A stretch of 40,827 nt of DNA from a virus. The position numbers and the translations under genes were made by a program. Shown piece by piece: positions 22,854-40,827 of the stretch (positions are counted from its first letter, which is position 1; each line of letters begins with the position of its first letter). The stretch is from positions 1-40,827 of the IMG/VR virus record IMGVR_UViG_3300043640_000296. One strand, written 5' to 3'. The notes below the pieces were generated by a model. That model searched no databases and was not told the origin of the DNA. It saw nothing but the letters and a program-made list of their open reading frames with translations.

Positions 22854-22863
22854 CATAAACTTT

Positions 22864-22936
22864 CTGGCATACCTGGACTCGAACCAGGGACCTAACGATT
22901 AACAGTCGTTCTCTCTACCAACTGAGCTATATGCCA
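22864..22936 (-). tRNA. tRNA-Asn (GUU)
   Basis: Hand-folded: acceptor TGGCATA/TATGCCA, anticodon stem AACGA/TCGTT with loop CTGTTAA, T arm CCTGG-TTCGAGT-CCAGG. Confidence 0.85.
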
Positions 22937-22941
22937 ATACT

Positions 22942-23013
22942 TAAGGATGATAGGGATCGAACCTATGACTTTCTGCTCCCAAAGCAGATGCTCTACCTCT
23001 GAGCCACACCCTT
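22942..23013 (-). tRNA. tRNA-Pro (UGG)
   Basis: Acceptor AAGGGTG/CATCCTT (one G.U), D arm GCTC/GAGC, anticodon stem TCTGC/GCAGA with loop TTTGGGA, T arm ATAGG-TTCGATC-CCTAT. Confidence 0.85.
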
Positions 23014-23020
23014 ATAAATC

Positions 23021-23092
23021 TTTAAGGAGATGGGATCGAACCACCATTGTCAAAGTCAAAGTCTGGTGTCCTACCAGTTAGACGATCCTTAA
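23021..23092 (-). tRNA. tRNA-Gln (UUG)
   Basis: Acceptor TTAAGGA/TCCTTAA, anticodon loop CTTTGAC, T arm GGTGG-TTCGATC-CCATC. The anticodon stem has a C-A mismatch at 27:43. Confidence 0.8.
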
Positions 23093-23097
23093 ATAAA

Positions 23098-23174
23098 TGG
23101 TAGCGAGAGTCGGATTTGAACCGACGACCTCTTGATTATGAGCCAAGCGAGCTACCAGACTGCTCTATCTCGCA
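23098..23174 (-). tRNA. tRNA-Met or Ile2 (CAU), CCA encoded
   Basis: D arm GAGC/GCTC, anticodon stem CTTGG/TCAAG with loop CTCATAA, T arm GTCGG-TTCAAAT-CCGAC, 3' ACCA. There is a U:U mismatch at 1:72 and no GGG/CCC initiator stem. Confidence 0.8.
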
Positions 23175-24041: not shown

Positions 24042-24116
24042 TGGTGCCCAAGGAAGGAGTCGAACCCACAACCAACTGCTTACAAAGCAGCTGCACTACC
24101 ATTGTGCTACTTGGGC
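24042..24116 (-). tRNA. tRNA-Thr (UGU), CCA encoded
   Basis: Acceptor GCCCAAG/CTTGGGC, D arm GCAC/GTGC, anticodon stem GCTGC/GCAGT with loop TTTGTAA. The T arm GTGGG-TTCGACT-CCTTC has one U:U mismatch and one G.U pair. Confidence 0.75.
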
Positions 24117-31080: not shown

Positions 31081-31364
31081 GTGAATTAACAGATGAACAA
31101 AAAGCAGAAATGTATAAAAAAGCTGATAAAGCTAATTTCACAACGGAAATACAAATAAGAAATGTAGGTGATTCAGATGATATTTATTACTTTAATAAGG
31201 CAAAGAAGCATGTAGGAAGCGGGTTTATTCCCAAAGAAGGCGAACGCAAAGGACATATATGTGTTACACGCTGTCCGGGCTGTGAGCGTGAAAACTATGC
31301 AATGAATGTGCTGAGTGGTTATTGCACATGGTGTCCGTTTAATGCTAATGGGGAAAGTAATTAA
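31077..31364 (+). CDS. Zinc-ribbon protein (95 aa)
   Basis: CVTRCPGC...CTWCP gives four Cys in two CxxC-type pairs. Confidence 0.55.
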   Translation: MSELTDEQKAEMYKKADKANFTTEIQIRNVGDSDDIYYFNKAKKHVGSGFIPKEGERKGHICVTRCPGCERENYAMNVLSGYCTWCPFNANGESN

Positions 31365-31864
31365 TGGCATTGAATAATAGGCAAATAGAAGATGCTGAAC
31401 TACGAGCTAAAGCCTATAAATTATTTGATGAGCGCGGTCTTTATATCCTTGTTAAACCTAATGGCTCTAAACTATTTCGTATGAAATATCGTTTTGACGG
31501 CAAAGAATATAGTTTATCGTTTGGTAGGTTTGGAGATATTACACTCGGTGAAGCACAAAAAATGGCAAGTGATGCGCGTAATCAATTAGCCTATGGAACA
31601 AACCCTAATGAAACTAAAAAGGTATTTAGACGCATGACAAAAGTGAGAATCAGGCACGAAGCAGAAAATCTATTATTATCACCTCTTAAAATATTACGTA
31701 ATCATCTAGAACATTTAGATGCGCAAGTGGAACACATGCAATCTAAAAAACGTGATATTGAGAATCAACTTGATTATGTTCAATGGGATTTGAACGAGAC
31801 ATTAGGCTTTATGGAACAAATTAAACAATCGTTAAAATATTTAGAAAAGGCTACTAAAGAATGA
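31364..31864 (+). CDS. Stand-alone integrase arm-type DNA-binding domain (DUF4102-like) fused to a coiled coil
   Basis: Residues 1-85 (AKAYKLFDERGLYILVKPNGSKLFRMKYRFDGKEYSLSFGRFGDITLGEAQKMASDARNQLAYGTNP) parallel the N-terminus of P4-type integrases. There is no SAM-like or catalytic domain; the C-terminus is an 80-aa helical tail. Confidence 0.7.
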   Translation: MALNNRQIEDAELRAKAYKLFDERGLYILVKPNGSKLFRMKYRFDGKEYSLSFGRFGDITLGEAQKMASDARNQLAYGTNPNETKKVFRRMTKVRIRHEAENLLLSPLKILRNHLEHLDAQVEHMQSKKRDIENQLDYVQWDLNETLGFMEQIKQSLKYLEKATKE

Positions 31865-34002: not shown

Positions 34003-34521
34003 TTACTGTTTTTCGCATTCTGCAATCCTTGCTTGAATTTCATCACGAACCTTTGTGGCTCTTAGTATTAGCCCTAAGTTGTCCCACATTTTAGCCTTAG
34101 CTTCGAGAACTTCTAAACTATCCGGCGCTTTTTGTGGCATAGGTAATAATCGCTTTTCATCTAAAATCCTAAAAGTTTCATTATCTTTTCTTCTATTTCG
34201 ATTAAACTTTAAAATCTCTAGCATTTGTGCGGGCTTAGGGGGATAGGCAAATTTTTTATATACTTCTTCAGCAGCTACATTAATTTCTATTTGTTCAAAA
34301 TCTTTAAGTAACATCCACCATGTGCGCTTAATAACCTCGGTCATTTCTTCATCAATAAATTGATTTAGCCATAATTGACCATAAATTGCGGCAAACATTG
34401 TAAAAATATCTCTTAACCAAAGAGGATAGGATATTCTTTTACCATCCTTTGAGGATGCTTGAGCCTGTTCTGAACACTTCTCGACTAGAACTAATTTGGC
34501 TATTTCCCCTATTTGCTTCAT
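34003..34521 (-). CDS. Replication protein, lambda P-like (helicase loader candidate)
   Basis: 172 aa, SD GAGAGG. IFTMFAAIYGQLWLNQF..EVIKRTWWMLLKDF parallels lambda P residues INGVFSQLLATF..EIRRQWVLAF as recalled. Position follows the O-like gene. Confidence 0.4.
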   Translation of the reverse strand: MKQIGEIAKLVLVEKCSEQAQASSKDGKRISYPLWLRDIFTMFAAIYGQLWLNQFIDEEMTEVIKRTWWMLLKDFEQIEINVAAEEVYKKFAYPPKPAQMLEILKFNRNRRKDNETFRILDEKRLLPMPQKAPDSLEVLEAKAKMWDNLGLILRATKVRDEIQARIAECEKQ

Positions 34522-35227
34522 TTGTTACCTCTCTAATGTCATCTTCCCAGCGTTTATTATGTAAATATGTGGACGGTAAAGGGATAAATTGAACATTTGA
34601 CCAGTCTGGATCATTTTTTATTCTATTTTGCACATCAGTAATAATTTCATCAGCCATAAGATTGCATTTATTTTTTCGCCATTCTTGAAAGGCTTTCATT
34701 TTATTTTTCTTCTTGGGATAAAGTTCCCAAAATTCTGGAAATTTATCTTGTGCATCGTCAGATGCACATAAAAGCTTTTCTTTTTGTTTAGTTATTAATT
34801 CTTTATTTAGTAGTCCCCCATTTGCCACTGGGTTCATTTCTGACCCTGTGGTGTGCATATTACTAGAATCATCTGAATTTGATGACCTATATTGTTGATT
34901 AATAATAAAATCTTGCCCATTTAACACATGAATATCCCAATGTGCAATCTGACCATTTGCACAATGCACTTGCACATATGAAATTAAGTTAGAACGTCTT
35001 AAATATGAGAATATTTGTTTAATTTTTGTATCACCAAATCCATAAATATTTTTAATATTTTGTTTAATAACTTTCCAATCTGAACTTTTTGAGAGTAAAT
35101 AACACCAAACCAAAAAGGCATCACCATTTTTAATATTATTAATTACATGATTACTTATTTGAGTAAAAGGTATGTTTTGAGAAATTGTTTTTGATTTATT
35201 ACTGAGTATAAATTTTTCAACTGACAT
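34439..35227 (-). CDS. Replication initiator (winged-helix, O/DnaD-like)
   Basis: 262 aa. The N-terminus (IPFTQISNHVINNI..GDAFLVWCYLLSKS...IKQIFSYLRRSNLISY) looks like phage initiator wHTH domains. It overlaps the next gene by 83 nt. Confidence 0.5.
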   Translation of the reverse strand: MSVEKFILSNKSKTISQNIPFTQISNHVINNIKNGDAFLVWCYLLSKSSDWKVIKQNIKNIYGFGDTKIKQIFSYLRRSNLISYVQVHCANGQIAHWDIHVLNGQDFIINQQYRSSNSDDSSNMHTTGSEMNPVANGGLLNKELITKQKEKLLCASDDAQDKFPEFWELYPKKKNKMKAFQEWRKNKCNLMADEIITDVQNRIKNDPDWSNVQFIPLPSTYLHNKRWEDDIREVTNEANRGNSQISSSREVFRTGSSILKGW

Positions 35228-35355
35228 GAAATTTCCTTATTTTTGTATTTACATCGTCGCCTTCCCATGCGAAAATCAGCGCATGTATGTGGATTGAGGG
35301 CTGGATGTCCAAAACCAATATTTTTAGCCACTTGTTCAAGAGGTGGCTAATGTCT

Positions 35356-35559
35356 TTATTTATAACAAACTTTACGTGATTTTATATAGTTGTCTAGGTC
35401 TTCTTTAAAGTACTGCACTTTTCTACCCACTCGTAGATAAGGAATTCTGGTTGGTCTTTCTACAGCCCATACTTTCATTGTTGTAAATGCAACCCCTAAG
35501 TATTTTGCAGCGTCTTCTCTATAAAATAAAATATTATTTTTCATTTGATTTATTTTCAT
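35356..35559 (-). CDS. Excisionase/AlpA-type HTH DNA-binding protein
   Basis: FYREDAAKYLGVAFTTMKVWAVERPTRIPYLRVGRKVQYFKEDLDNYI fits the HTH_17/excisionase-family pattern. Confidence 0.6.
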   Translation of the reverse strand: MKINQMKNNILFYREDAAKYLGVAFTTMKVWAVERPTRIPYLRVGRKVQYFKEDLDNYIKSRKVCYK

Positions 35560-35621
35560 CCTATGTTATGTTCCTTAACTTTAGAGAACTCTATCATTAA
35601 TCTGATTAATAAGGAATTAAA

Positions 35622-35951
35622 ATGAAAGTGGAAGATATTTTAGAAAAGATTCACGGAGATGGTTTGATAAATGGAATTGATGCACATTTAAAAAAAATTA
35701 ATTTCACAATCGCAAAAGAAGTTCCTTATTCTATATTTAAAATAATTGATTTTGATTCGCGCAAAATAGAAGTTGCTTATAAAACTTATATTATAGGTGT
35801 TTTAACAAATGATAAAGAAATGCGCATAAGCTCTCTCAATGCAGTGAAAGAAATGTCGCCTGATTTGCTCACAAATTTGAAAGCATTTAAGAAACAACAT
35901 AAATTTCATAATGAAAATTGCAAAAACACTTCTTGTAAAAAAGATAAATAA
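35622..35951 (+). CDS. Lone opposite-strand gene (moron-like), function unknown
   Basis: 109 aa, SD AAGGAA 6 nt upstream, with its own terminator at 35991-36017. Genes on both sides run on the minus strand. Confidence 0.6.
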   Translation: MKVEDILEKIHGDGLINGIDAHLKKINFTIAKEVPYSIFKIIDFDSRKIEVAYKTYIIGVLTNDKEMRISSLNAVKEMSPDLLTNLKAFKKQHKFHNENCKNTSCKKDK

Positions 35952-35990
35952 AGTTATTATGCATTTGAAGTAGTTGTTAGACATTAATTA

Positions 35991-36017
35991 GGCCTTCATA
36001 AGAAGGCCGTCTTTTTA
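35991..36017 (+). terminator. Intrinsic terminator
   Basis: GGCCTTC (35991-35997), loop ATAA, GAAGGCC (36002-36008), then GTCTTTTTATTT. Confidence 0.7.
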
Positions 36018-36284
36018 TTTCTTTTGATTAGTTAATTGCTTATGACTGAGAGTTCCTTCAATTACTTTTTTACCATCTAAATGACTTTTCTGCATAAAGA
36101 GAATCTGTGGTTCTTGATCAATCATGCGAGCATATTCTAATTGTGCTTTAATCGTTGATATAACGCTTTCACAGAGTTTTCCAGTAACACCGGCCTCTGT
36201 TGTATCAATTTCACCATTTGATAGCTTCTCTAGCGTATTTAATGCATGATCTCTCAATGCTTCTATAGTATTAATCTTCGACAC
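36015..36284 (-). CDS. Hypothetical protein (89 aa), last gene of the immunity-side operon
   Basis: ORF overlapping the upstream gene's stop by 14 nt. Confidence 0.55.
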   Translation of the reverse strand: MSKINTIEALRDHALNTLEKLSNGEIDTTEAGVTGKLCESVISTIKAQLEYARMIDQEPQILFMQKSHLDGKKVIEGTLSHKQLTNQKK

Positions 36285-37155
36285 TTCTTTTCTCCTTTAA
36301 TAATAATATTTTTTCTTGATCTAGTCTTTTTTTAGCGCCATTTTTTAATAACATAATAGCGCGTTTTGCTTCGACTAAACCTTGTGGTACATCTGCACTT
36401 TTTAAACCTGTTCTTTTAACAATTGATTGTTTGATATAATAATCATTCAACTCTCTTCGTGAATCTTGAATGAATTTTTTCTTTGCTTGTTTGACTTCTT
36501 CTGGGTTTCTTTCTTCCCATTTTTGCCAAAGTTCGCGAGATTTTTGTAAATTAATTTCTCTATGTTTTAAACGAGATTTTTGTTTACAAACTTTTACTTT
36601 TTCTGGATCAGCTTTTCTATATTTTGCATGAGCTGCCAATACTTTCGCTTTATTCAATTGATAATGTTTATCATGCATTTCTTTCATGCATCGTTTGCAT
36701 TTCCATTTTTGTTCACCATTTGCATATTTGCCTGAACGAATAACTTCTTCTCTAAATAATTTTCCATGTTCTGAACACGTTTTTAATGGCTCTTCCATTT
36801 TCTTTTTAAGGTTATTTATTTGAATGATTGCACGTTTTGCTTCAATTAATTCTTGAGGGATTTCCTGATTTTTTATGCCTGATTTGCCTGTTCTAAGCGT
36901 TTTTCTAACATAATAATCTGTAACATTTTCTTTCTCTTTTTTCCATTCCATTAAACGCGCTTTTTTATTTTCCATTTTTTCGGTTTCACAATGCCGACAA
37001 CGTACAATCTTATTACCGGTTTTTTTTATAATGACTTCAATGAAATCAGTATCTCTATTCGCCCAACGATGGAATGAACAAGATTTTTTTACTTCTTCCT
37101 GTTTCTTTTCTTCTAGCACTTCCTGTGCAGAATCTTCTAAGAAAGATTTTTGCAT
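36271..37155 (-). CDS. Internally duplicated zinc-ribbon / Lys-Glu-rich protein
   Basis: 294 aa made of two units. Each opens CS.H..(about 20 aa)..C(R/K)xC and closes DYY(V/I)(R/K)...(I/V)PQ.L(I/V)EAKRAI. Confidence 0.6.
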   Translation of the reverse strand: MQKSFLEDSAQEVLEEKKQEEVKKSCSFHRWANRDTDFIEVIIKKTGNKIVRCRHCETEKMENKKARLMEWKKEKENVTDYYVRKTLRTGKSGIKNQEIPQELIEAKRAIIQINNLKKKMEEPLKTCSEHGKLFREEVIRSGKYANGEQKWKCKRCMKEMHDKHYQLNKAKVLAAHAKYRKADPEKVKVCKQKSRLKHREINLQKSRELWQKWEERNPEEVKQAKKKFIQDSRRELNDYYIKQSIVKRTGLKSADVPQGLVEAKRAIMLLKNGAKKRLDQEKILLLKEKRSVED

Positions 37156-37484
37156 TAAAATTTATCCACCAACCAATTTCTAATAGTAGGTAATATTACT
37201 AAATAAATACCTCCTGCTATAAAAGCCATTTCATACCAAAACCCAAATTTTAAACAAATAAAATAACATAAAGGAAGATAAAGTAGCATGTGATATGCAA
37301 AGTTTTTACTTTTCCAAGAATGTTCTTTATCTATTTGTTTATATTTTTCAATGAGTTTTTTATGCTCTTCATTTAAATTTTCCTCAAATTTTTTATACAT
37401 ACAGTCGCCACATAAATCAGGAACTATAATATTAAACTCCTGCTTACATTGTAAGCAGGATAAATCTTTCATAAGTTTAGACAT
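37155..37484 (-). CDS. Zinc-ribbon protein with two C-terminal TM helices
   Basis: 109 aa. N-terminal CLQC...CGDC; C-terminal hydrophobic YHMLLYLPLCYFICLKFGFW and IAGGIYLVILPTI. Confidence 0.6.
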   Translation of the reverse strand: MSKLMKDLSCLQCKQEFNIIVPDLCGDCMYKKFEENLNEEHKKLIEKYKQIDKEHSWKSKNFAYHMLLYLPLCYFICLKFGFWYEMAFIAGGIYLVILPTIRNWLVDKF

Positions 37485-37487
37485 AAA

Positions 37488-37946
37488 TTAATCTTCAAGA
37501 ACGTGATATTTGCTGGCACGGAAAATAAGTTGTTTCTTATATACTTCAAACTTAATTTTTCTTGAATGAACAGCTTCTAAAGGAACATTACCCGTCCATT
37601 TAAATTGAACTTTACAAGTTAAAGAATTTGTTTCTTGGCCTAAACTATAACCATTTCCACCTGTACTTTTCACTAGTCTAAAATGATATTGATCATCAGG
37701 ATTAAAGAAAGGAAGAATTTTATCTTTTGGTTCCCATCCTAATTTAACTAAAACATCATGACCAATACGCACACGAATAGTATCAATAATGCCTTTTTCT
37801 TTACTTGATTCACAACAAGTAATCACAACACTATTAGGATTTAATCGCGCATAAGATCCACGAACAACATTAATAGCTGTCCAGTTAATAGAATCAACTA
37901 AGCTAGCTAAACTTTTTGGTTTTACCTTCGATACTACTTTTTTCAT
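37488..37946 (-). CDS. Hypothetical soluble protein (152 aa)
   Basis: SD AAAGGAAG 4 nt upstream of the ATG. No family recognised. Confidence 0.6.
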   Translation of the reverse strand: MKKVVSKVKPKSLASLVDSINWTAINVVRGSYARLNPNSVVITCCESSKEKGIIDTIRVRIGHDVLVKLGWEPKDKILPFFNPDDQYHFRLVKSTGGNGYSLGQETNSLTCKVQFKWTGNVPLEAVHSRKIKFEVYKKQLIFRASKYHVLED

Positions 37947-38148
37947 GACACTTCCTTTTTGGTTTACGTTTTTTTATTAAAAATAATTTTATGATGAAAT
38001 AAAAACAAACTGGTATTGAAATTAAAATAGCAATGATTAATAATAAAGGTAATGTAGAAGAAACTACCTGAGGAATAATAATTCCTGTCATAGAAAAAAA
38101 TCCCACACCAAATATTCCAGCATAAAATATCAGTTTGTTTATCTTCAT
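37903..38148 (-). CDS. Two-TM membrane protein with Lys/Arg-rich tail
   Basis: 81 aa from ATG 38148, which is 1 nt after the SPFH stop; SD AAGGG. Hydrophobic LIFYAGIFGVGFFSMTGIII and LPLLLIIAILISIPVCFYFII, then KKRKPKRK. Confidence 0.6.
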   Translation of the reverse strand: MKINKLIFYAGIFGVGFFSMTGIIIPQVVSSTLPLLLIIAILISIPVCFYFIIKLFLIKKRKPKRKCHEKSSIEGKTKKFS

Positions 38149-38149
38149 T

Positions 38150-38989
38150 TTATTGCCCTTTAACATTGATAAACGGAATAGCAGAATTACCTGTCATGCG
38201 TGGCAACTCCCCATTCCATTTTAAGATTGCTTGGTATGAGACAAATTCTGGAGTGAGTGATTCTGCAAGAATTTTATTAGCTTTGGCTTGAGATTCAGCA
38301 TTAATAAGTATCTGCTTACCACGGGCCTCTGCTTCAACCACTGTTTTTTGTGCTTGTGCTCGACTTGTTGCAATTTCATTTTCCACCTTCATAGCATTTT
38401 GTGAGGCTTGAATCTTGGAGTTAATAGAATTAATAACTGTTTGAGGTAATTCAAAAGAGCCTACTAAATAAATTTTATCAACTTCAATGCCATTATCGAA
38501 TGCTTCTTTTTTTACAATTTCATTTACTTTAGTAATAAATGCTTCTTTTTGTGCACCATAAATTTGTTCGACAGTCATAGTTGATGCAACTTCATTCATA
38601 GCATCACGCACCATATTATGTAGAAAAGTATTGGTAATTTCATCTATACCCAGCCGATATTTAGTAAATACTTTAACAACATTATCAGGCTTGATGCTAT
38701 AAGTAATACCAGCATCAGTACAAATAGATAATCCTTCGCTAGTTTGCATAGTAATTGCTTGTTCATTTTTCCATGAGTAATTCTGCAAAAAAGTAGGGAA
38801 TAAATAAAGCTCGCTATTCCAGCCGAGATAATAACGCCCAACACCGACAGATTGTTCGCCAACACCTTTGTCACTTCCATACAAATTAACAATTACACCT
38901 CGATAGCCAGCTGGCACTTTACTGCAACCTGATAAACCTATTATTGATCCTAATACAATGCCTGTAATAATCGCTTTCTTAAACTTCAT
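38150..38989 (-). CDS. SPFH/Band-7 (prohibitin/HflC-like) lipoprotein
   Basis: 279 aa. Signal peptide with lipobox LSGC. SPFH core VPAGYRGVIV...ITMQTSEGLSI..DAGITYSI, then a long Ala/Gln/Glu coiled coil (ATSRAQAQKTVVEAEARGKQILINAESQAKANKILAES). Confidence 0.8.
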   Translation of the reverse strand: MKFKKAIITGIVLGSIIGLSGCSKVPAGYRGVIVNLYGSDKGVGEQSVGVGRYYLGWNSELYLFPTFLQNYSWKNEQAITMQTSEGLSICTDAGITYSIKPDNVVKVFTKYRLGIDEITNTFLHNMVRDAMNEVASTMTVEQIYGAQKEAFITKVNEIVKKEAFDNGIEVDKIYLVGSFELPQTVINSINSKIQASQNAMKVENEIATSRAQAQKTVVEAEARGKQILINAESQAKANKILAESLTPEFVSYQAILKWNGELPRMTGNSAIPFINVKGQ

Positions 38990-39000
38990 GTTTTTCCCTT

Positions 39001-39213
39001 TTATTGGTCTTTGATAAAATCTTCTATTTTCACTTTTATATTATATTTTTTTGCTAATTTAACGATTTTGAATAATAACGGCATATCAGGAAATTGCAAA
39101 TTTCTTCTAATCCTTGACACGGAAACTTGACTGCAACCCAATATTTCAGCGATTTCAACCTGATTTAAGTCACTGATATACTTGATCTCTTTAATAACTT
39201 CCCCGATATTCAT
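39001..39213 (-). CDS. Cro/CI-type HTH transcriptional regulator
   Basis: 70 aa from ATG 39213, SD AAGAAAGG. LNQVEIAEILGCSQVSVSRIRRN is an XRE-type HTH. It is the first gene after the divergent promoter region. Confidence 0.7.
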   Translation of the reverse strand: MNIGEVIKEIKYISDLNQVEIAEILGCSQVSVSRIRRNLQFPDMPLLFKIVKLAKKYNIKVKIEDFIKDQ

Positions 39214-39244
39214 AGTAATGCCTTTCTTCTTAAAATTTAGTGGC

Positions 39245-39273
39245 ATAATAGGTAGTATAAAAATAAATGTCAA
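39245..39273 (-). promoter_or_regulatory. Leftward sigma70-like promoter of the HTH/SPFH operon
   Basis: On the minus strand: TTGACA (39273-39268), 17-nt spacer, TATTAT (39250-39245). Confidence 0.55.
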
Positions 39274-39298
39274 CGATTAAATATTACATGGATGTATA

Positions 39299-39325
39299 TT
39301 GACTATTCTTACATGAACGTATAAT
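39299..39325 (+). promoter_or_regulatory. Rightward sigma70-like promoter of the recombination operon
   Basis: TTGACT (39299-39304), 15-nt spacer (short), TATAAT (39320-39325). Back-to-back with the leftward promoter. Confidence 0.4.
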
Positions 39326-39360
39326 ATGTACGAGTAAGTTAATTAATCAGCGAGGTTTTT

Positions 39361-39450
39361 ATGAATGAAGTTTACGAAGAACAAGTTATAATATGTCCCC
39401 TGTGTGATGGATCACATGGTAACAATTCAAATTGTCAAAGGAATGATTGA
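39361..39450 (+). CDS. Small Cys-containing peptide (29 aa)
   Basis: SD GAGG 6 nt upstream. Sequence MNEVYEEQVIICPLCDGSHGNNSNCQRND. Its stop is 1 nt before the next ATG. Confidence 0.4.
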   Translation: MNEVYEEQVIICPLCDGSHGNNSNCQRND

Positions 39451-39451
39451 T

Positions 39452-39808
39452 ATGAACTACGCATATACAATTCCGCATTATCTCTATGAAAAGCCTATTT
39501 ATAGTTATCTCGAAACTCTTATTGATAATGGCTTACATGTTTATGATCTTGATGAAGAAGAAAGAGAAGATCTAGTTGTTCGCATCATACAAGTTCTTGG
39601 CACTGATGCTTATAATGTCATTATTGGTTCAGATGATTTTGATAAAACTCTTAATTATTTCTCTAAATTCTTACAAACAGCAGATCCAAGTGATCTATAT
39701 GATCTTGGCTGTCAAATGCGAGATAACGCACTCGATCATTACAATTACGATCTTGAACAACTCTTTAATGAAATTCTTGAAACTAAAACTAGGGGACAAA
39801 TAGCATGA
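39452..39808 (+). CDS. Acidic early protein (118 aa)
   Basis: Start taken at ATG 39452, SD AAAGGAA. The track ORF starts upstream at 39404. Its stop overlaps the ATPase start. Confidence 0.55.
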   Translation: MNYAYTIPHYLYEKPIYSYLETLIDNGLHVYDLDEEEREDLVVRIIQVLGTDAYNVIIGSDDFDKTLNYFSKFLQTADPSDLYDLGCQMRDNALDHYNYDLEQLFNEILETKTRGQIA

Positions 39809-40740
39809 TGATTCGCAAAGCAGAACGACGACAAGCAAAGTTACGACTAGGTATCTCAGGTGCTTCAGGTAGTGGTAAAACTTGGTCAGCATTAGAAATT
39901 GCAACAGGAATGGGCGGCAAAATCGGTATGATTGATACAGAAGCAGGCCGTGGTGAACTTTACGGGAATGATTTTGAGTATGACATTATACGTTTAGAAG
40001 CGCCTTACAGCGTAGAACGCTACATTGAAGCGATTAAAATGTTTGAAAAAGCAGGTTATGACATTCTCATCATTGATAGCTTGTCTCATGCTTGGGTCGG
40101 GGAAGGTGGAGTTTTATCAGTCGTTGATAAAGCTGGTAATAATAGCTTTACTCAAGGCTGGAAAGCAGGAACACCAAAGCATAATTCTTTGATTGAAGCC
40201 ATGGTCACAAGTTCTCTACATATCATTACAACACTTCGTGTAAAGACTGAGTATGTGGTTGAAAAGAATGATCGAGGCAAAGCTGAACCACGTAAGATCG
40301 GTTTATCACCTGTCCAGCGTGATGGTTTAGAATATGAGTTCACCGTGTTCATGGATATTAGCCAGGAACATACAGCACATGTCACTAAAGATAATACTCA
40401 ATTGTTTGATCAACAGTATTTAAAACCTTCTAAAGCAATGGGTGAAAAGTTAATAAGCTGGTTAAATGAAGGTCTAGATTCTGAAGAAGAGTTTGTGAAT
40501 GTGACTCTTCCTTCATTAATCACCGAGATTGATAGCTGTGAAGATCTTAATTCTTTAAGACTTAAATTCTCTGAGCTTTATCACCTTTATTCAACTGAGT
40601 TTCCCGACAGAATTGAAACTCTCGTTGCGGCAAAAGATAAACGTAAAGAAGAGCTTCTTTCAGAAGAATCTGATTTTGTGACACCTGTTATCAAAACAGG
40701 ATTTAAAAATTCTCAAGCATTAGTTCAGGGGGTTGCGTAA
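39805..40740 (+). CDS. Sak4-like AAA_24 (RecA-fold) recombination ATPase
   Basis: 311 aa. Walker A GISGASGSGKTWS and Walker B ILIIDSLSH, then LHIITTLRVKTEY and GLEYEFTVFMDI, typical of phage Sak4/AAA_24 proteins. Confidence 0.8.
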   Translation: MMIRKAERRQAKLRLGISGASGSGKTWSALEIATGMGGKIGMIDTEAGRGELYGNDFEYDIIRLEAPYSVERYIEAIKMFEKAGYDILIIDSLSHAWVGEGGVLSVVDKAGNNSFTQGWKAGTPKHNSLIEAMVTSSLHIITTLRVKTEYVVEKNDRGKAEPRKIGLSPVQRDGLEYEFTVFMDISQEHTAHVTKDNTQLFDQQYLKPSKAMGEKLISWLNEGLDSEEEFVNVTLPSLITEIDSCEDLNSLRLKFSELYHLYSTEFPDRIETLVAAKDKRKEELLSEESDFVTPVIKTGFKNSQALVQGVA

Positions 40741-40827
40741 TGCATTTATATCAAATAAGCGCCGAATATGCAGAAATTTTAGATAATCTTTATGATGAGG
40801 AGGGCGTCATCAACAATGATGCTCTTA
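40701..40827. repeat. Terminal direct repeat, copy 2 (identical to 1..127)
   Basis: Exact 127-nt match to the window start. It holds the ATPase stop codon and the first 88 nt of the Gp157-like gene again. Confidence 0.95.

Follow-up and report, generated by a model that had tools for sequence, protein, structure and literature searches.

Introduction

Genome papers on phages that carry a gene for an SPFH (Band-7) protein have speculated about a role connected with HflKC and FtsH and have called the role of such proteins unclear (PMC4936722, PMC8540360), and the family has been recorded in obligately lytic phages (PMC8540360). Literature searches for functional studies of phage SPFH proteins returned a single functional report, which concerns PM0222 of Pasteurella (PMC9872710). 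Here we describe an SPFH lipoprotein gene and its small membrane partner in the IMG/VR virus record IMGVR_UViG_3300043640_000296, of which the whole stretch from position 1 to 40,827 (40,827 nt) was analysed and is called the window below. The two genes stand at the head of six tightly packed genes behind a gene for a helix-turn-helix (HTH) regulator, and a preliminary description of this DNA had taken the six for one membrane module. The region is probably a mosaic, composed of a two-gene SPFH cassette (Unit A, 38989-37903) and a lineage-specific early block (Unit B, 37946-36015) within an early operon headed by the HTH gene. Judged by its sequence, the window SPFH protein is a new and divergent member of an abundantly annotated, functionally uncharacterised family. 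The two genes of the cassette are the following:

38150..38989, minus strand: SPFH/Band-7 prohibitin-like lipoprotein of 279 aa, assigned with Pfam and PHROGs
37903..38148, minus strand: p81, an 81-aa protein forming a hairpin of two transmembrane (TM) helices, which starts 1 nt past the SPFH stop

The closest described counterparts are the phrog_200/phrog_1130 pairs of isolated phages, for example AIZ95120.1 and AIZ95119.1 of P88, AC3HA13_200 and AC3HA13_190 of 3HA13, PAN70_040 and PAN70_041, and ProddE_010 and ProddE_009. Like the phrog_200 proteins of these isolates, the window SPFH protein gives a full-length match and has the invariant lipobox Cys, the mature start C-x-x-V-P/E-A/P-G-x-x-G-V and the C-terminal W-x-G-x-L-P. 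With the phrog_1130 proteins p81 shares the adjacent, translationally coupled two-TM hairpin and a loop of the form P-x-[LIVM]-[IV]-S. The gene order differs: the SPFH gene precedes its partner in the window group, whereas the partner precedes the SPFH gene in the isolates examined.

In Escherichia coli HflK and HflC, too, a long coiled coil comes after the SPFH domain, and both proteins face the periplasm, an orientation predicted here for the phage protein. The latter differs in having an N-terminal lipid anchor in place of a TM helix, in being encoded by one SPFH gene rather than by two paralogues, and in having a two-TM partner, for which HflK/C have no equivalent. A search of NCBIfam at E ≤ 0.05 gave no HflK or HflC model for it and chance-level matches only. 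Being the product of a single gene, lipid-anchored and without a match to an HflK/C model, the window SPFH protein is not HflK/C. The mitochondrial prohibitin-1/2 cage provides the best PDB profile match (3e-5), over SPFH2 and the coiled coil, and the record of phage ProddE annotates the SPFH homologue with CDD cd03401, SPFH_prohibitin. Unlike the window protein, however, prohibitins are eukaryotic, heteromeric and TM-anchored, and the similarity is remote.

In the SPFH-NfeD operons (QmcA-YbbJ, FloT/YuaG-YuaF and Pyrococcus stomatin-1510-N) a small membrane protein is likewise encoded by a gene translationally coupled to that of the SPFH protein, and the pair is inherited together. The phage partner has only 60-90 aa and lacks NfeD and its OB-fold, and the phage SPFH domain is predicted to be exported, unlike that of the cytoplasm-facing QmcA/stomatin type. 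NfeD (PF01957) was found neither in p81 at E ≤ 0.1 nor in any of 27 partners scanned; SPFH and p81 are therefore not an SPFH-NfeD pair.

A position next to a regulator and a membrane or lipoprotein nature link the locus to lambda rexAB, P22 sieB, T4 Imm/Sp, T5 Llp and TP-J34 Ltp. It has, however, no sequence relationship to rexAB, sieB or the envelope superinfection exclusion proteins, the operon of its Cro-sized regulator continues into replication genes, and its SPFH protein is conserved. Pasteurella multocida PM0222 (Pmorf0222), which can be likened to the window protein by description only, is a prophage-borne protein of the SPFH superfamily in a Gram-negative host (PMC9872710). Its reported role as a TLR1/2 agonist secreted in outer-membrane vesicles and as a virulence factor (PMC9872710) differs from the one proposed below.

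A two-gene cassette and a separate early block

The six open reading frames (ORFs) of the preliminary description are all present, tightly packed and co-oriented behind the HTH gene, and so are the features ascribed to them: a signal peptide with lipobox LSGC in the first protein, two TM helices and a Lys/Arg tail in the second, CxxC..CxxC with TM helices in the fourth and the duplicated zinc ribbon in the fifth. The four genes that follow the cassette, and the gene that converges on them, are:

37488..37946, minus strand: p152, a soluble, beta-rich early protein; lineage core
37155..37484, minus strand: p109, a CxxC...CxxC zinc ribbon with a C-terminal two-TM hairpin; semi-conserved lineage gene
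36271..37155, minus strand: p294, internally duplicated and basic (isoelectric point 9.8); lineage core
36015..36284, minus strand: p89, which overlaps the p294 stop by 14 nt
35622..35951, plus strand: c109, a convergent gene of 109 aa with a weak, sub-threshold lipocalin match (Pfam)

Contigs with homologues of p294 and p89 provided eight more phages of the lineage, nine with the window, in which the genes were scored by tblastn and custom hidden Markov models (HMMs):

p152, p294 and p89: 9/9 lineage phages, always in the same order
p109: 5/9 lineage phages, the window included
SPFH and the small TM gene: 4/9 (window, L003, L006 and L054), always together
neither SPFH nor the small TM gene: 5/9 (L005, L009, L055, L056 and L057)

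The relatives L003, L006 and L054 share the order of the six genes with the window, but in L006 the partner and p152 are separated by two unrelated genes. In these three and in the window the cassette sits between the HTH gene, or an XhlA-like gene described below, and p152. It is absent from the same junction in L005, L009 and L055, where p152 or the XhlA-like gene directly follows the HTH gene; hence it behaves as an insertion/deletion at one junction. Such presence/absence polymorphism between syntenic relatives is what is expected of a moron. A promoter and a terminator of its own, also expected of a moron, were not found for the SPFH-p81 pair: 11 nt separate the HTH gene from the SPFH gene, 1 nt separates the SPFH gene from p81, and no terminator follows the pair.

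Scanning of IMG/VR yielded 36 other viral contigs with an SPFH protein 63-91% identical to that of the window. None of them contains p294, p89 or c109, and a p152-like gene is present in five. With a homologue in only one of the 36, the p109-like zinc-ribbon/TM protein was rejected as a third component of the cassette. The six genes are thus syntenic only in close relatives and come apart further out. Because the cassette and the p152/p294/p89 block occur separately in both directions, the two-gene cassette of SPFH and partner appears to be the real unit. Unit A, an SPFH lipoprotein with a translationally coupled two-TM hairpin, is gained and lost as a pair and is widespread among phages of Gram-negative bacteria, temperate and lytic, and Unit B (p152-p109-p294-p89), encoding mainly soluble early proteins, is kept with or without it.

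The co-occurrence data largely refute the idea of a single membrane-associated system for defence, abortive infection or exclusion that comprises all six genes and is built on an SPFH scaffold, and there is very little chance that it is correct. Tight packing and translational coupling in one operon, the order conserved in L003, L006 and L054, and sequence features that make three of the six proteins membrane-bound would all suit such a system. They have to be set against the five relatives that keep p152, p294 and p89 in the absence of SPFH and partner, the 36 SPFH contigs devoid of p294, p89 and c109 (only five with a p152-like gene), the unrelated genes inserted in L006, and the soluble nature of p152, p294 and p89, of which p294 is in addition basic. 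Searches for known systems were likewise negative, with no match of any of the six proteins to PADLOC (PADLOC-DB v2) at E ≤ 0.1 and no exclusion family of the lambda RexAB or P22 SieB type in a PHROGs scan of the six. Since the genes are not one unit, the claim of a six-gene module loses most of its value.

The SPFH lipoprotein

The assignment of the first protein to the SPFH/Band-7 superfamily is well above HMM thresholds. Pfam Band_7 (PF01145) matches at 9.5e-27, scoring 94.6 bits (cutoff 23.6) over residues 24-213, which cover positions 2-176 of the 176 in the profile, and phrog_200, annotated as 'lipoprotein', matches at 2.5e-75 over residues 2-278, that is, over the full length. The signal peptide MKFKK-AIITGIVLGSIIG is followed by the lipobox LSGC, the Cys of which is retained by all 24 homologues that were aligned, distant isolates included. 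The mature protein is predicted to begin with Cys22 directly at the SPFH domain, which starts at Cys+3, and the mature start C-x-x-V-P-A-G-Y-R-G-V is invariant or nearly so. This invariance of the lipobox Cys and near-invariance of the first mature residues imply that the SPFH domain must sit directly on the membrane that bears the lipid.

The C-terminal part consists of a long coiled coil and a W-x-G-x-L-P...P-F motif. A profile of the family built from 24 homologues matched prohibitin-1 (3e-5), QmcA (8.5e-5) and HflC (3e-4) in the PDB, all of which form cages. Exactly 11 additional residues are present in the long C-terminal helix of L028, L043, L044 and ProddE, near residue 218 of the window protein (alignment columns ~231-241). 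The insertion equals one hendecad and keeps the coiled-coil register, as would suit a wall of coiled coils that can vary in height.

With the window SPFH protein as query, tblastn matched 764 phage records, 742 of them over at least 80% of the query, and identity to isolate phages reached 48.5% at most. Searching genome_contigs gave only one match, 25% identical, in a Nitrospirota metagenome-assembled genome, and provided no clue to a host or prophage. Homologues are routinely misannotated in phage records as 'serine protease' or 'transposase' (or carry the label 'lipoprotein').

Between phages that have 40-70% identity in their other shared genes, the SPFH protein is 83-88% identical. The proportion of synonymous differences (pS) is 0.64-0.80 and the nonsynonymous divergence (dN) 0.09-0.12, compared with a dN of 0.44-0.67 for p152, p294 and the partner. 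Recent horizontal transfer was considered as the source of the high SPFH identity (83-91%) and ruled out, as synonymous sites are saturated. For the same reason the identity reflects constraint, and the SPFH gene is under strong purifying selection.

The hairpin partner

In p81, the hydrophobic residues 6-60 make up two TM helices, after which comes a KKRKPKRK tail, predicted to be cytoplasmic. The loop between the helices carries GIIIPQVVSS as part of the motif G-I-I-I-P-Q-V-V-S-S-x-x-P. Counting the window, 37 of 39 loci encode a two-TM protein of 60-110 aa whose start lies -20 to +14 nt from the SPFH stop and in most cases -4 to +2 nt from it; at one of the two exceptional loci the contig ends, and the other is truly without a partner. 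In the other viral contigs with an SPFH gene, the two-TM partner follows directly in 34 of the 35 that could be scored (of 36). These downstream-type partners are only 18-36% identical to p81. Their alignment shows an invariant Pro in the loop and a near-invariant Gly and second Pro, with the loop consensus G-I-I-L-P-W-x-I-S-x-x-x-L-P and the general form G-x-I-x-P-x-L-I-S, or G-x-[IV]-x-P-x-[LIVM]-[IV]-S.

The swapped order, in which the hairpin gene lies immediately 5' of the SPFH gene and usually overlaps it, occurs in P88, in a prophage associated with a Shiga toxin (Stx) phage, where it is unannotated, and in PAN70, ProddE, PhiBt-E264.1, 3HA13 and DSS3P8. In the rV5-like phage 4MG the hairpin is encoded two genes upstream of SPFH. 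Among these carriers P88 is a coliphage, PAN70, ProddE, PhiBt-E264.1 and DSS3P8 are phages of Pseudomonas, Desulfovibrio, Burkholderia and Roseobacter, respectively, and 3HA13 is N4-like. The record of an Stx2a-converting phage (L052, LC567818.1) labels its SPFH gene 'serine protease'; directly upstream, at ~2750-2940, an unannotated ORF of 62 aa, MRLYFTIVILLAIIACIYGLLVPFLISMKD..., encodes the hairpin partner.

Upstream-type partners were scanned for P88, PAN70 and ProddE, and all three match phrog_1130, described as 'membrane protein; moron/host takeover'. When p81-type partners were aligned by hhalign with the upstream-type ones of P88, PAN70, ProddE, PhiBt and the Stx phage, a probability of 92.6% and an E-value of 4.6e-7 were obtained. 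PHROGs gave no direct match of p81 to phrog_1130, the window-type partner falling under the threshold, and NCBIfam gave chance-level matches only. Both termini of the partner are basic, and for this reason its conserved loop is placed in the periplasm, the compartment predicted for the SPFH domain as well.

The pairing has its limits. A FelixO1-like phage has an SPFH gene without the partner, and in CbK-like phages and Kayvirus phages of Gram-positive hosts different small membrane proteins, such as MbpV, are encoded. We found no description in the literature of the constant pairing of a phage SPFH protein with a dedicated hairpin.

A possible cage in the host membrane

These features suggest how the cassette might act. 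The lipoprotein would be exported, with its SPFH domain on the periplasmic face of a membrane, most likely the inner one. Oligomerisation through the long coiled coil would produce a ring or cage over a patch of membrane, as in HflK/C, prohibitins and QmcA, with the periplasmic loop of the partner docking to SPFH and the hairpins lying beneath the cage. Its purpose would probably be takeover of the host membrane during infection, by shielding or reorganising a patch of the inner membrane and possibly by capturing FtsH; a multi-gene defence system it is not. We tentatively propose, as a possibility that is less likely than not, that SPFH and hairpin are a near-universal viral counterpart of the HflK/C/prohibitin cage, which lytic and temperate phages of Gram-negative bacteria would assemble early in infection on the periplasmic side of the inner membrane to capture a conserved host machine such as FtsH or to wall off a membrane patch. 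Within the lineage of the window, the cassette may work together with c109.

In E. coli, Asp at position +2 of a lipoprotein acts as an inner-membrane retention signal (Lol avoidance), and the SPFH orthologues of the E. coli phages P88 and Stx2_14040 carry Asp at +2. Several observations nevertheless weigh against the picture drawn here. Position +2 of the window SPFH protein is Ser, a residue that in E. coli would direct it to the outer membrane. A Pasteurella prophage homologue, PM0222, is released in outer-membrane vesicles (PMC9872710). On account of these two points the inner-membrane placement is uncertain. Similarity of the SPFH protein to PDB entries is remote (E ~1e-5) and confined to the C-terminal half, and profile comparison of TM proteins can be inflated by composition. 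Finally, c109 is present in 4/4 lineage phages with SPFH and in 0/5 without it, which the division into two units leaves unexplained.

The Ser at +2 would be compatible with a surface factor for lysogenic conversion or virulence that is sent to the outer membrane or to vesicles to the benefit of the host, as is PM0222, a prophage-encoded HflK/C-like protein secreted in outer-membrane vesicles that activates TLR1/2 and adds to virulence (PMC9872710). Such a function of the window protein is highly improbable: the window phage and its relatives are metagenomic and no lysogeny module was found, and the obligatory inner-membrane hairpin partner, together with the occurrence in lytic phages, points to a role in infection.

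A different reading is that SPFH and partner are a superinfection exclusion device, comparable to T4 Imm/Sp, HK97 gp15, T5 Llp and TP-J34 Ltp, which is made early or by the prophage and changes the inner membrane or periplasm in such a way that the DNA of a second phage is kept out. Such devices typically consist of an envelope lipoprotein and a small TM protein, and this counts in favour of the reading. The preliminary description had pointed to the position beside a regulator, and this is borne out in related loci: of 38 related SPFH loci, at least 15 have a co-oriented gene for a small HTH regulator no more than 1.4 kb upstream, and in Pseudomonas phage PAN70 and the Stx-phage-associated prophage the SPFH gene is downstream of CI. 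In N4-like 3HA13 the annotation of a gene two places upstream notes similarity to a superinfection exclusion protein, and PHROGs places the partner family under moron/host takeover. Exclusion proteins are, however, usually fast-evolving and lineage-specific, whereas the SPFH protein, with a dN of ~0.1, ranks among the best-conserved proteins of these phages and can be recognised in many families of phages of Gram-negative bacteria. PHROGs and PADLOC showed no homology to known exclusion or defence models, and literature searches found no experimental report. We regard exclusion as rather doubtful; it stays a serious rival because of the frequent promoter-proximal position of the SPFH gene after a Cro/CI-type regulator. 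Broad distribution, occurrence in lytic phages and strong purifying selection lead us to favour a conserved host target, or a constraint of self-assembly, over arms-race exclusion.

Genes of the lineage-specific block

The preliminary description had recognised no family for the five genes after SPFH. For p81, which belongs to a partner family related to phrog_1130, and for p152, which has relatives in about 156 clusters, this no longer applies.

An exhaustive search returned 156 representatives of p152 homologues (clusters at 50% identity), ~140-150 aa in length; the family size rests on this search, a word-indexed one having given only two relatives. The AlphaFold2 model of p152 (pLDDT 91.2) is beta-rich. 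Foldseek found nothing for it in the PDB at E < 0.5 and only uncharacterised phage proteins in BFVD, and p152 has neither a Pfam family nor an NCBIfam match. One member of the family weakly matches MazE/AbrB.

The cysteines of p109 are arranged as C10xxC13...C25xxC28. Homologues are present in L005, L009, L054, L055 and L050, some of them in phages without SPFH, and in L050 the p109-like and p152-like genes adjoin. NCBIfam contains no match to p109.

p294 contains a pair of CHCC zinc ribbons, and a long helical motif, D-x-Y-[VI]...P-x-x-L-[IV]-[ED]-A-x-R-A, comes after each of them. A search of 5.8 billion proteins gave only 13 homologues, in which all eight zinc ligands (C26, H29, C53, C56, C127, H130, C153 and C156) are invariant. 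The AlphaFold2 model (pLDDT 83.8) is elongated, with ribbon and long helices, and has no counterpart in the PDB at E < 0.5 by Foldseek. Pattern scans of viral_contigs and genome_contigs revealed no relatives, and NCBIfam only sub-threshold zinc-ribbon domains.

Within the core block p89 is conserved best, at 62-73% identity. Its 36 homologues are all metagenomic hypothetical proteins, it always directly follows the p294 homologue, and it has no match in Pfam, PHROGs, NCBIfam or PADLOC. The zinc-ribbon and basic proteins of Unit B probably bind nucleic acid.

Operon layout and putative control sites

On the minus strand of 36015-39273 there are seven consecutive ORFs, from the HTH gene to p89, with junctions in this order of 11, 1, -44, 3, -1 and -14 nt and a Shine-Dalgarno-like motif at six of the seven starts. 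All ORFs described here are considered real genes because each has conserved homologues. The regulator gene and the putative control elements of the region are:

39001..39213, minus strand: HTH regulator of 70 aa, Cro-sized, first gene of the operon
39245..39273, minus strand: sigma-70-like promoter TTGACA-17-TATTAT, matching at 11 of 12 positions, the best match in 35200-39900; a consensus match only
39284-39298 and 39309-39323: two operator-like copies of TTACATGRAYGTATA, with the core palindrome TACAT-NN-ATGTA; a direct repeat, 87% identical
35991..36008: GC-rich hairpin between the convergent genes, from a terminator scan and reading of the sequence

The HTH protein matches HTH_3 at 1.3e-4, just under the Pfam cutoff, phrog_8 (1e-7) and phrog_3 (4e-6), both transcriptional regulators, and the generic PADLOC model HTH_VI (1.7e-7). 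Its homologues come first in the same operon in eight related phages. Two further starts, TTG 39273 and ATG 39246, were considered and rejected, both being within the promoter hexamers and the homologues starting at ATG 39213. Position 39273, given earlier as the edge of the region, is thus not a gene start: the TTG there belongs to the -35 hexamer, and this and the N-termini of the homologues place the start at ATG 39213.

The putative promoter is 32 nt 5' of this ATG and presumably drives the HTH-led leftward operon. Both copies of TTACATGRAYGTATA are located between divergent promoters, the second one overlapping a promoter-like site on the plus strand (39299-39327), and the repeats may be an operator. 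The hairpin at 35991-36008 has a T-tract on the plus strand, and therefore terminates the convergent gene at 35622-35951. On the minus strand an A-tract precedes it and TAATTAAT follows, so that for the six-gene operon it looks at best like a bidirectional or a leaky, weak stop. The terminator thought to close the chain therefore exists as a hairpin, clear for the plus-strand gene and weak or leaky for the six genes. In relatives without the convergent gene, the operon continues straight into the HTH_17 and replication-initiator genes.

Most relatives, though not the window, encode an XhlA-like protein (coiled coil and C-terminal TM helix, 84-110 aa) between the HTH gene and the next gene, with or without SPFH. 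These genes are located at:

L003, 6060-6353: XhlA-like gene
L005, 6974-7243: XhlA-like gene
L006, 5252-5566: XhlA-like gene
L019, 3597-3929: XhlA-like gene
L054, 2963-3271: XhlA-like gene
L055, 4094-4348: XhlA-like gene

The convergent gene c109

c109 is divergent from the HTH_17 gene (35356-35559, minus strand) and the replication-initiator operon, with a spacer of 62 nt. Homologues beyond the window were found only in L003, L006 and L054, and are absent from the 36 other SPFH contigs. In neighbour-joining trees L006, which has both SPFH and c109, groups beside L056, which has neither, and apart from the clade of the window, L003 and L054; the trees are star-like and the sample is small. This grouping suggests that shared ancestry alone may not explain the joint pattern of SPFH and c109. 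The gene could be a second regulator or an immunity gene.

The phage genome

The window represents a complete, circularly permuted phage genome of ~40.8 kb, as Logan contig L001 bridges its end and start: in this contig, which encodes identical proteins, the AAA_24 gene (39805-40740) leads directly to Sipho_Gp157 (40-531) and DUF669 (674-1138). Family searches identified a P22-type portal, small and large terminase and a GH108 endolysin. Identity of the large terminase to isolates does not exceed 39%. When 30.5 kb of the window (1-25000 and 35300-40827) were compared by megablast with 50,697 phage records, none of these matched; a close isolate is thus lacking. Further features are:

34439-35227: phrog_270 replication initiator, directly downstream of the six-gene region
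22863-23174, 24042-24116 and 1586-1673: six tRNA genes, those for Asn, Pro, Gln and Met clustered, plus Thr and a second Gln

Six tRNA genes are unusual in a 41-kb phage, and they occur here without a detectable integrase. A protein of 166 aa (31364-31864, plus strand) contains only the Arm-DNA-binding domain of an integrase (Arm-DNA-bind_3, 3.6e-20), the catalytic domain being absent. In four relatives (L005, L006, L009 and L054), but not in the window, the same operon of small genes also encodes a ParA/CbiA ATPase; these relatives may have a phage-plasmid lifestyle. A Pfam sweep of 45 other ORFs found one RNA_ligase (PF09414, 5e-8) and one Gly_rich_2, and an Rfam scan of 35000-40827 no RNA family.

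The 45 further ORFs of the whole circular genome yielded no integrase, recombinase, ParA or protelomerase family, and no CII-like gene was detected in the genome of the window phage. The gene order comprises the Cro-sized HTH gene, the accessory genes, HTH_17, the replication initiator and the endolysin, with an AAA_24/Gp157/SSB-like operon divergent from them. This layout is that of an early lytic operon and not of a CI/rexAB immunity operon. With no integrase detected and an HTH protein of Cro size, the genes of the region look promoter-proximal and early. The analogy with a repressor, rexAB and lysogeny drawn in the preliminary description is accordingly weak, given a regulator of only 70 aa, the lack of detectable integrase, recombinase and ParA, and the run of the operon into replication genes in relatives.

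The same data bear on the suggestion that the SPFH protein mimics HflK/C and tunes the degradation of a CII-like factor by FtsH, thereby influencing the lysis-lysogeny decision. The idea has been raised before (PMC4936722, PMC8540360) and has some appeal, in that the protein would face the periplasm as HflK/C do, adjoins a regulatory switch, and has HflC and the prohibitins, partners of FtsH-type AAA proteases, among its nearest solved relatives. We nevertheless consider it improbable. Integrase, recombinase, ParA and a CII-like gene all went undetected in this genome, the protein matches no HflK/HflC model of NCBIfam and is the product of a single gene rather than part of a heteromeric pair, and the family is common in obligately lytic phages, namely Kayvirus, N4-like and rV5-like phages, T7-like ProddE and the PAK_P3 group (PMC8540360).

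Implications

The SPFH family is present in at least 764 sequenced phages, lytic and temperate, which makes the cassette a very common one that is still unexplained. The dedicated hairpin partner, the predicted export of the domain and a constraint far stronger than that on the neighbouring genes provide a testable handle on phage SPFH scaffolds, and orthologues exist in tractable coliphages (P88, N4-like and rV5-like). If the proposal is true, a periplasmic SPFH-hairpin cage would be among the most widespread uncharacterised devices of host takeover.

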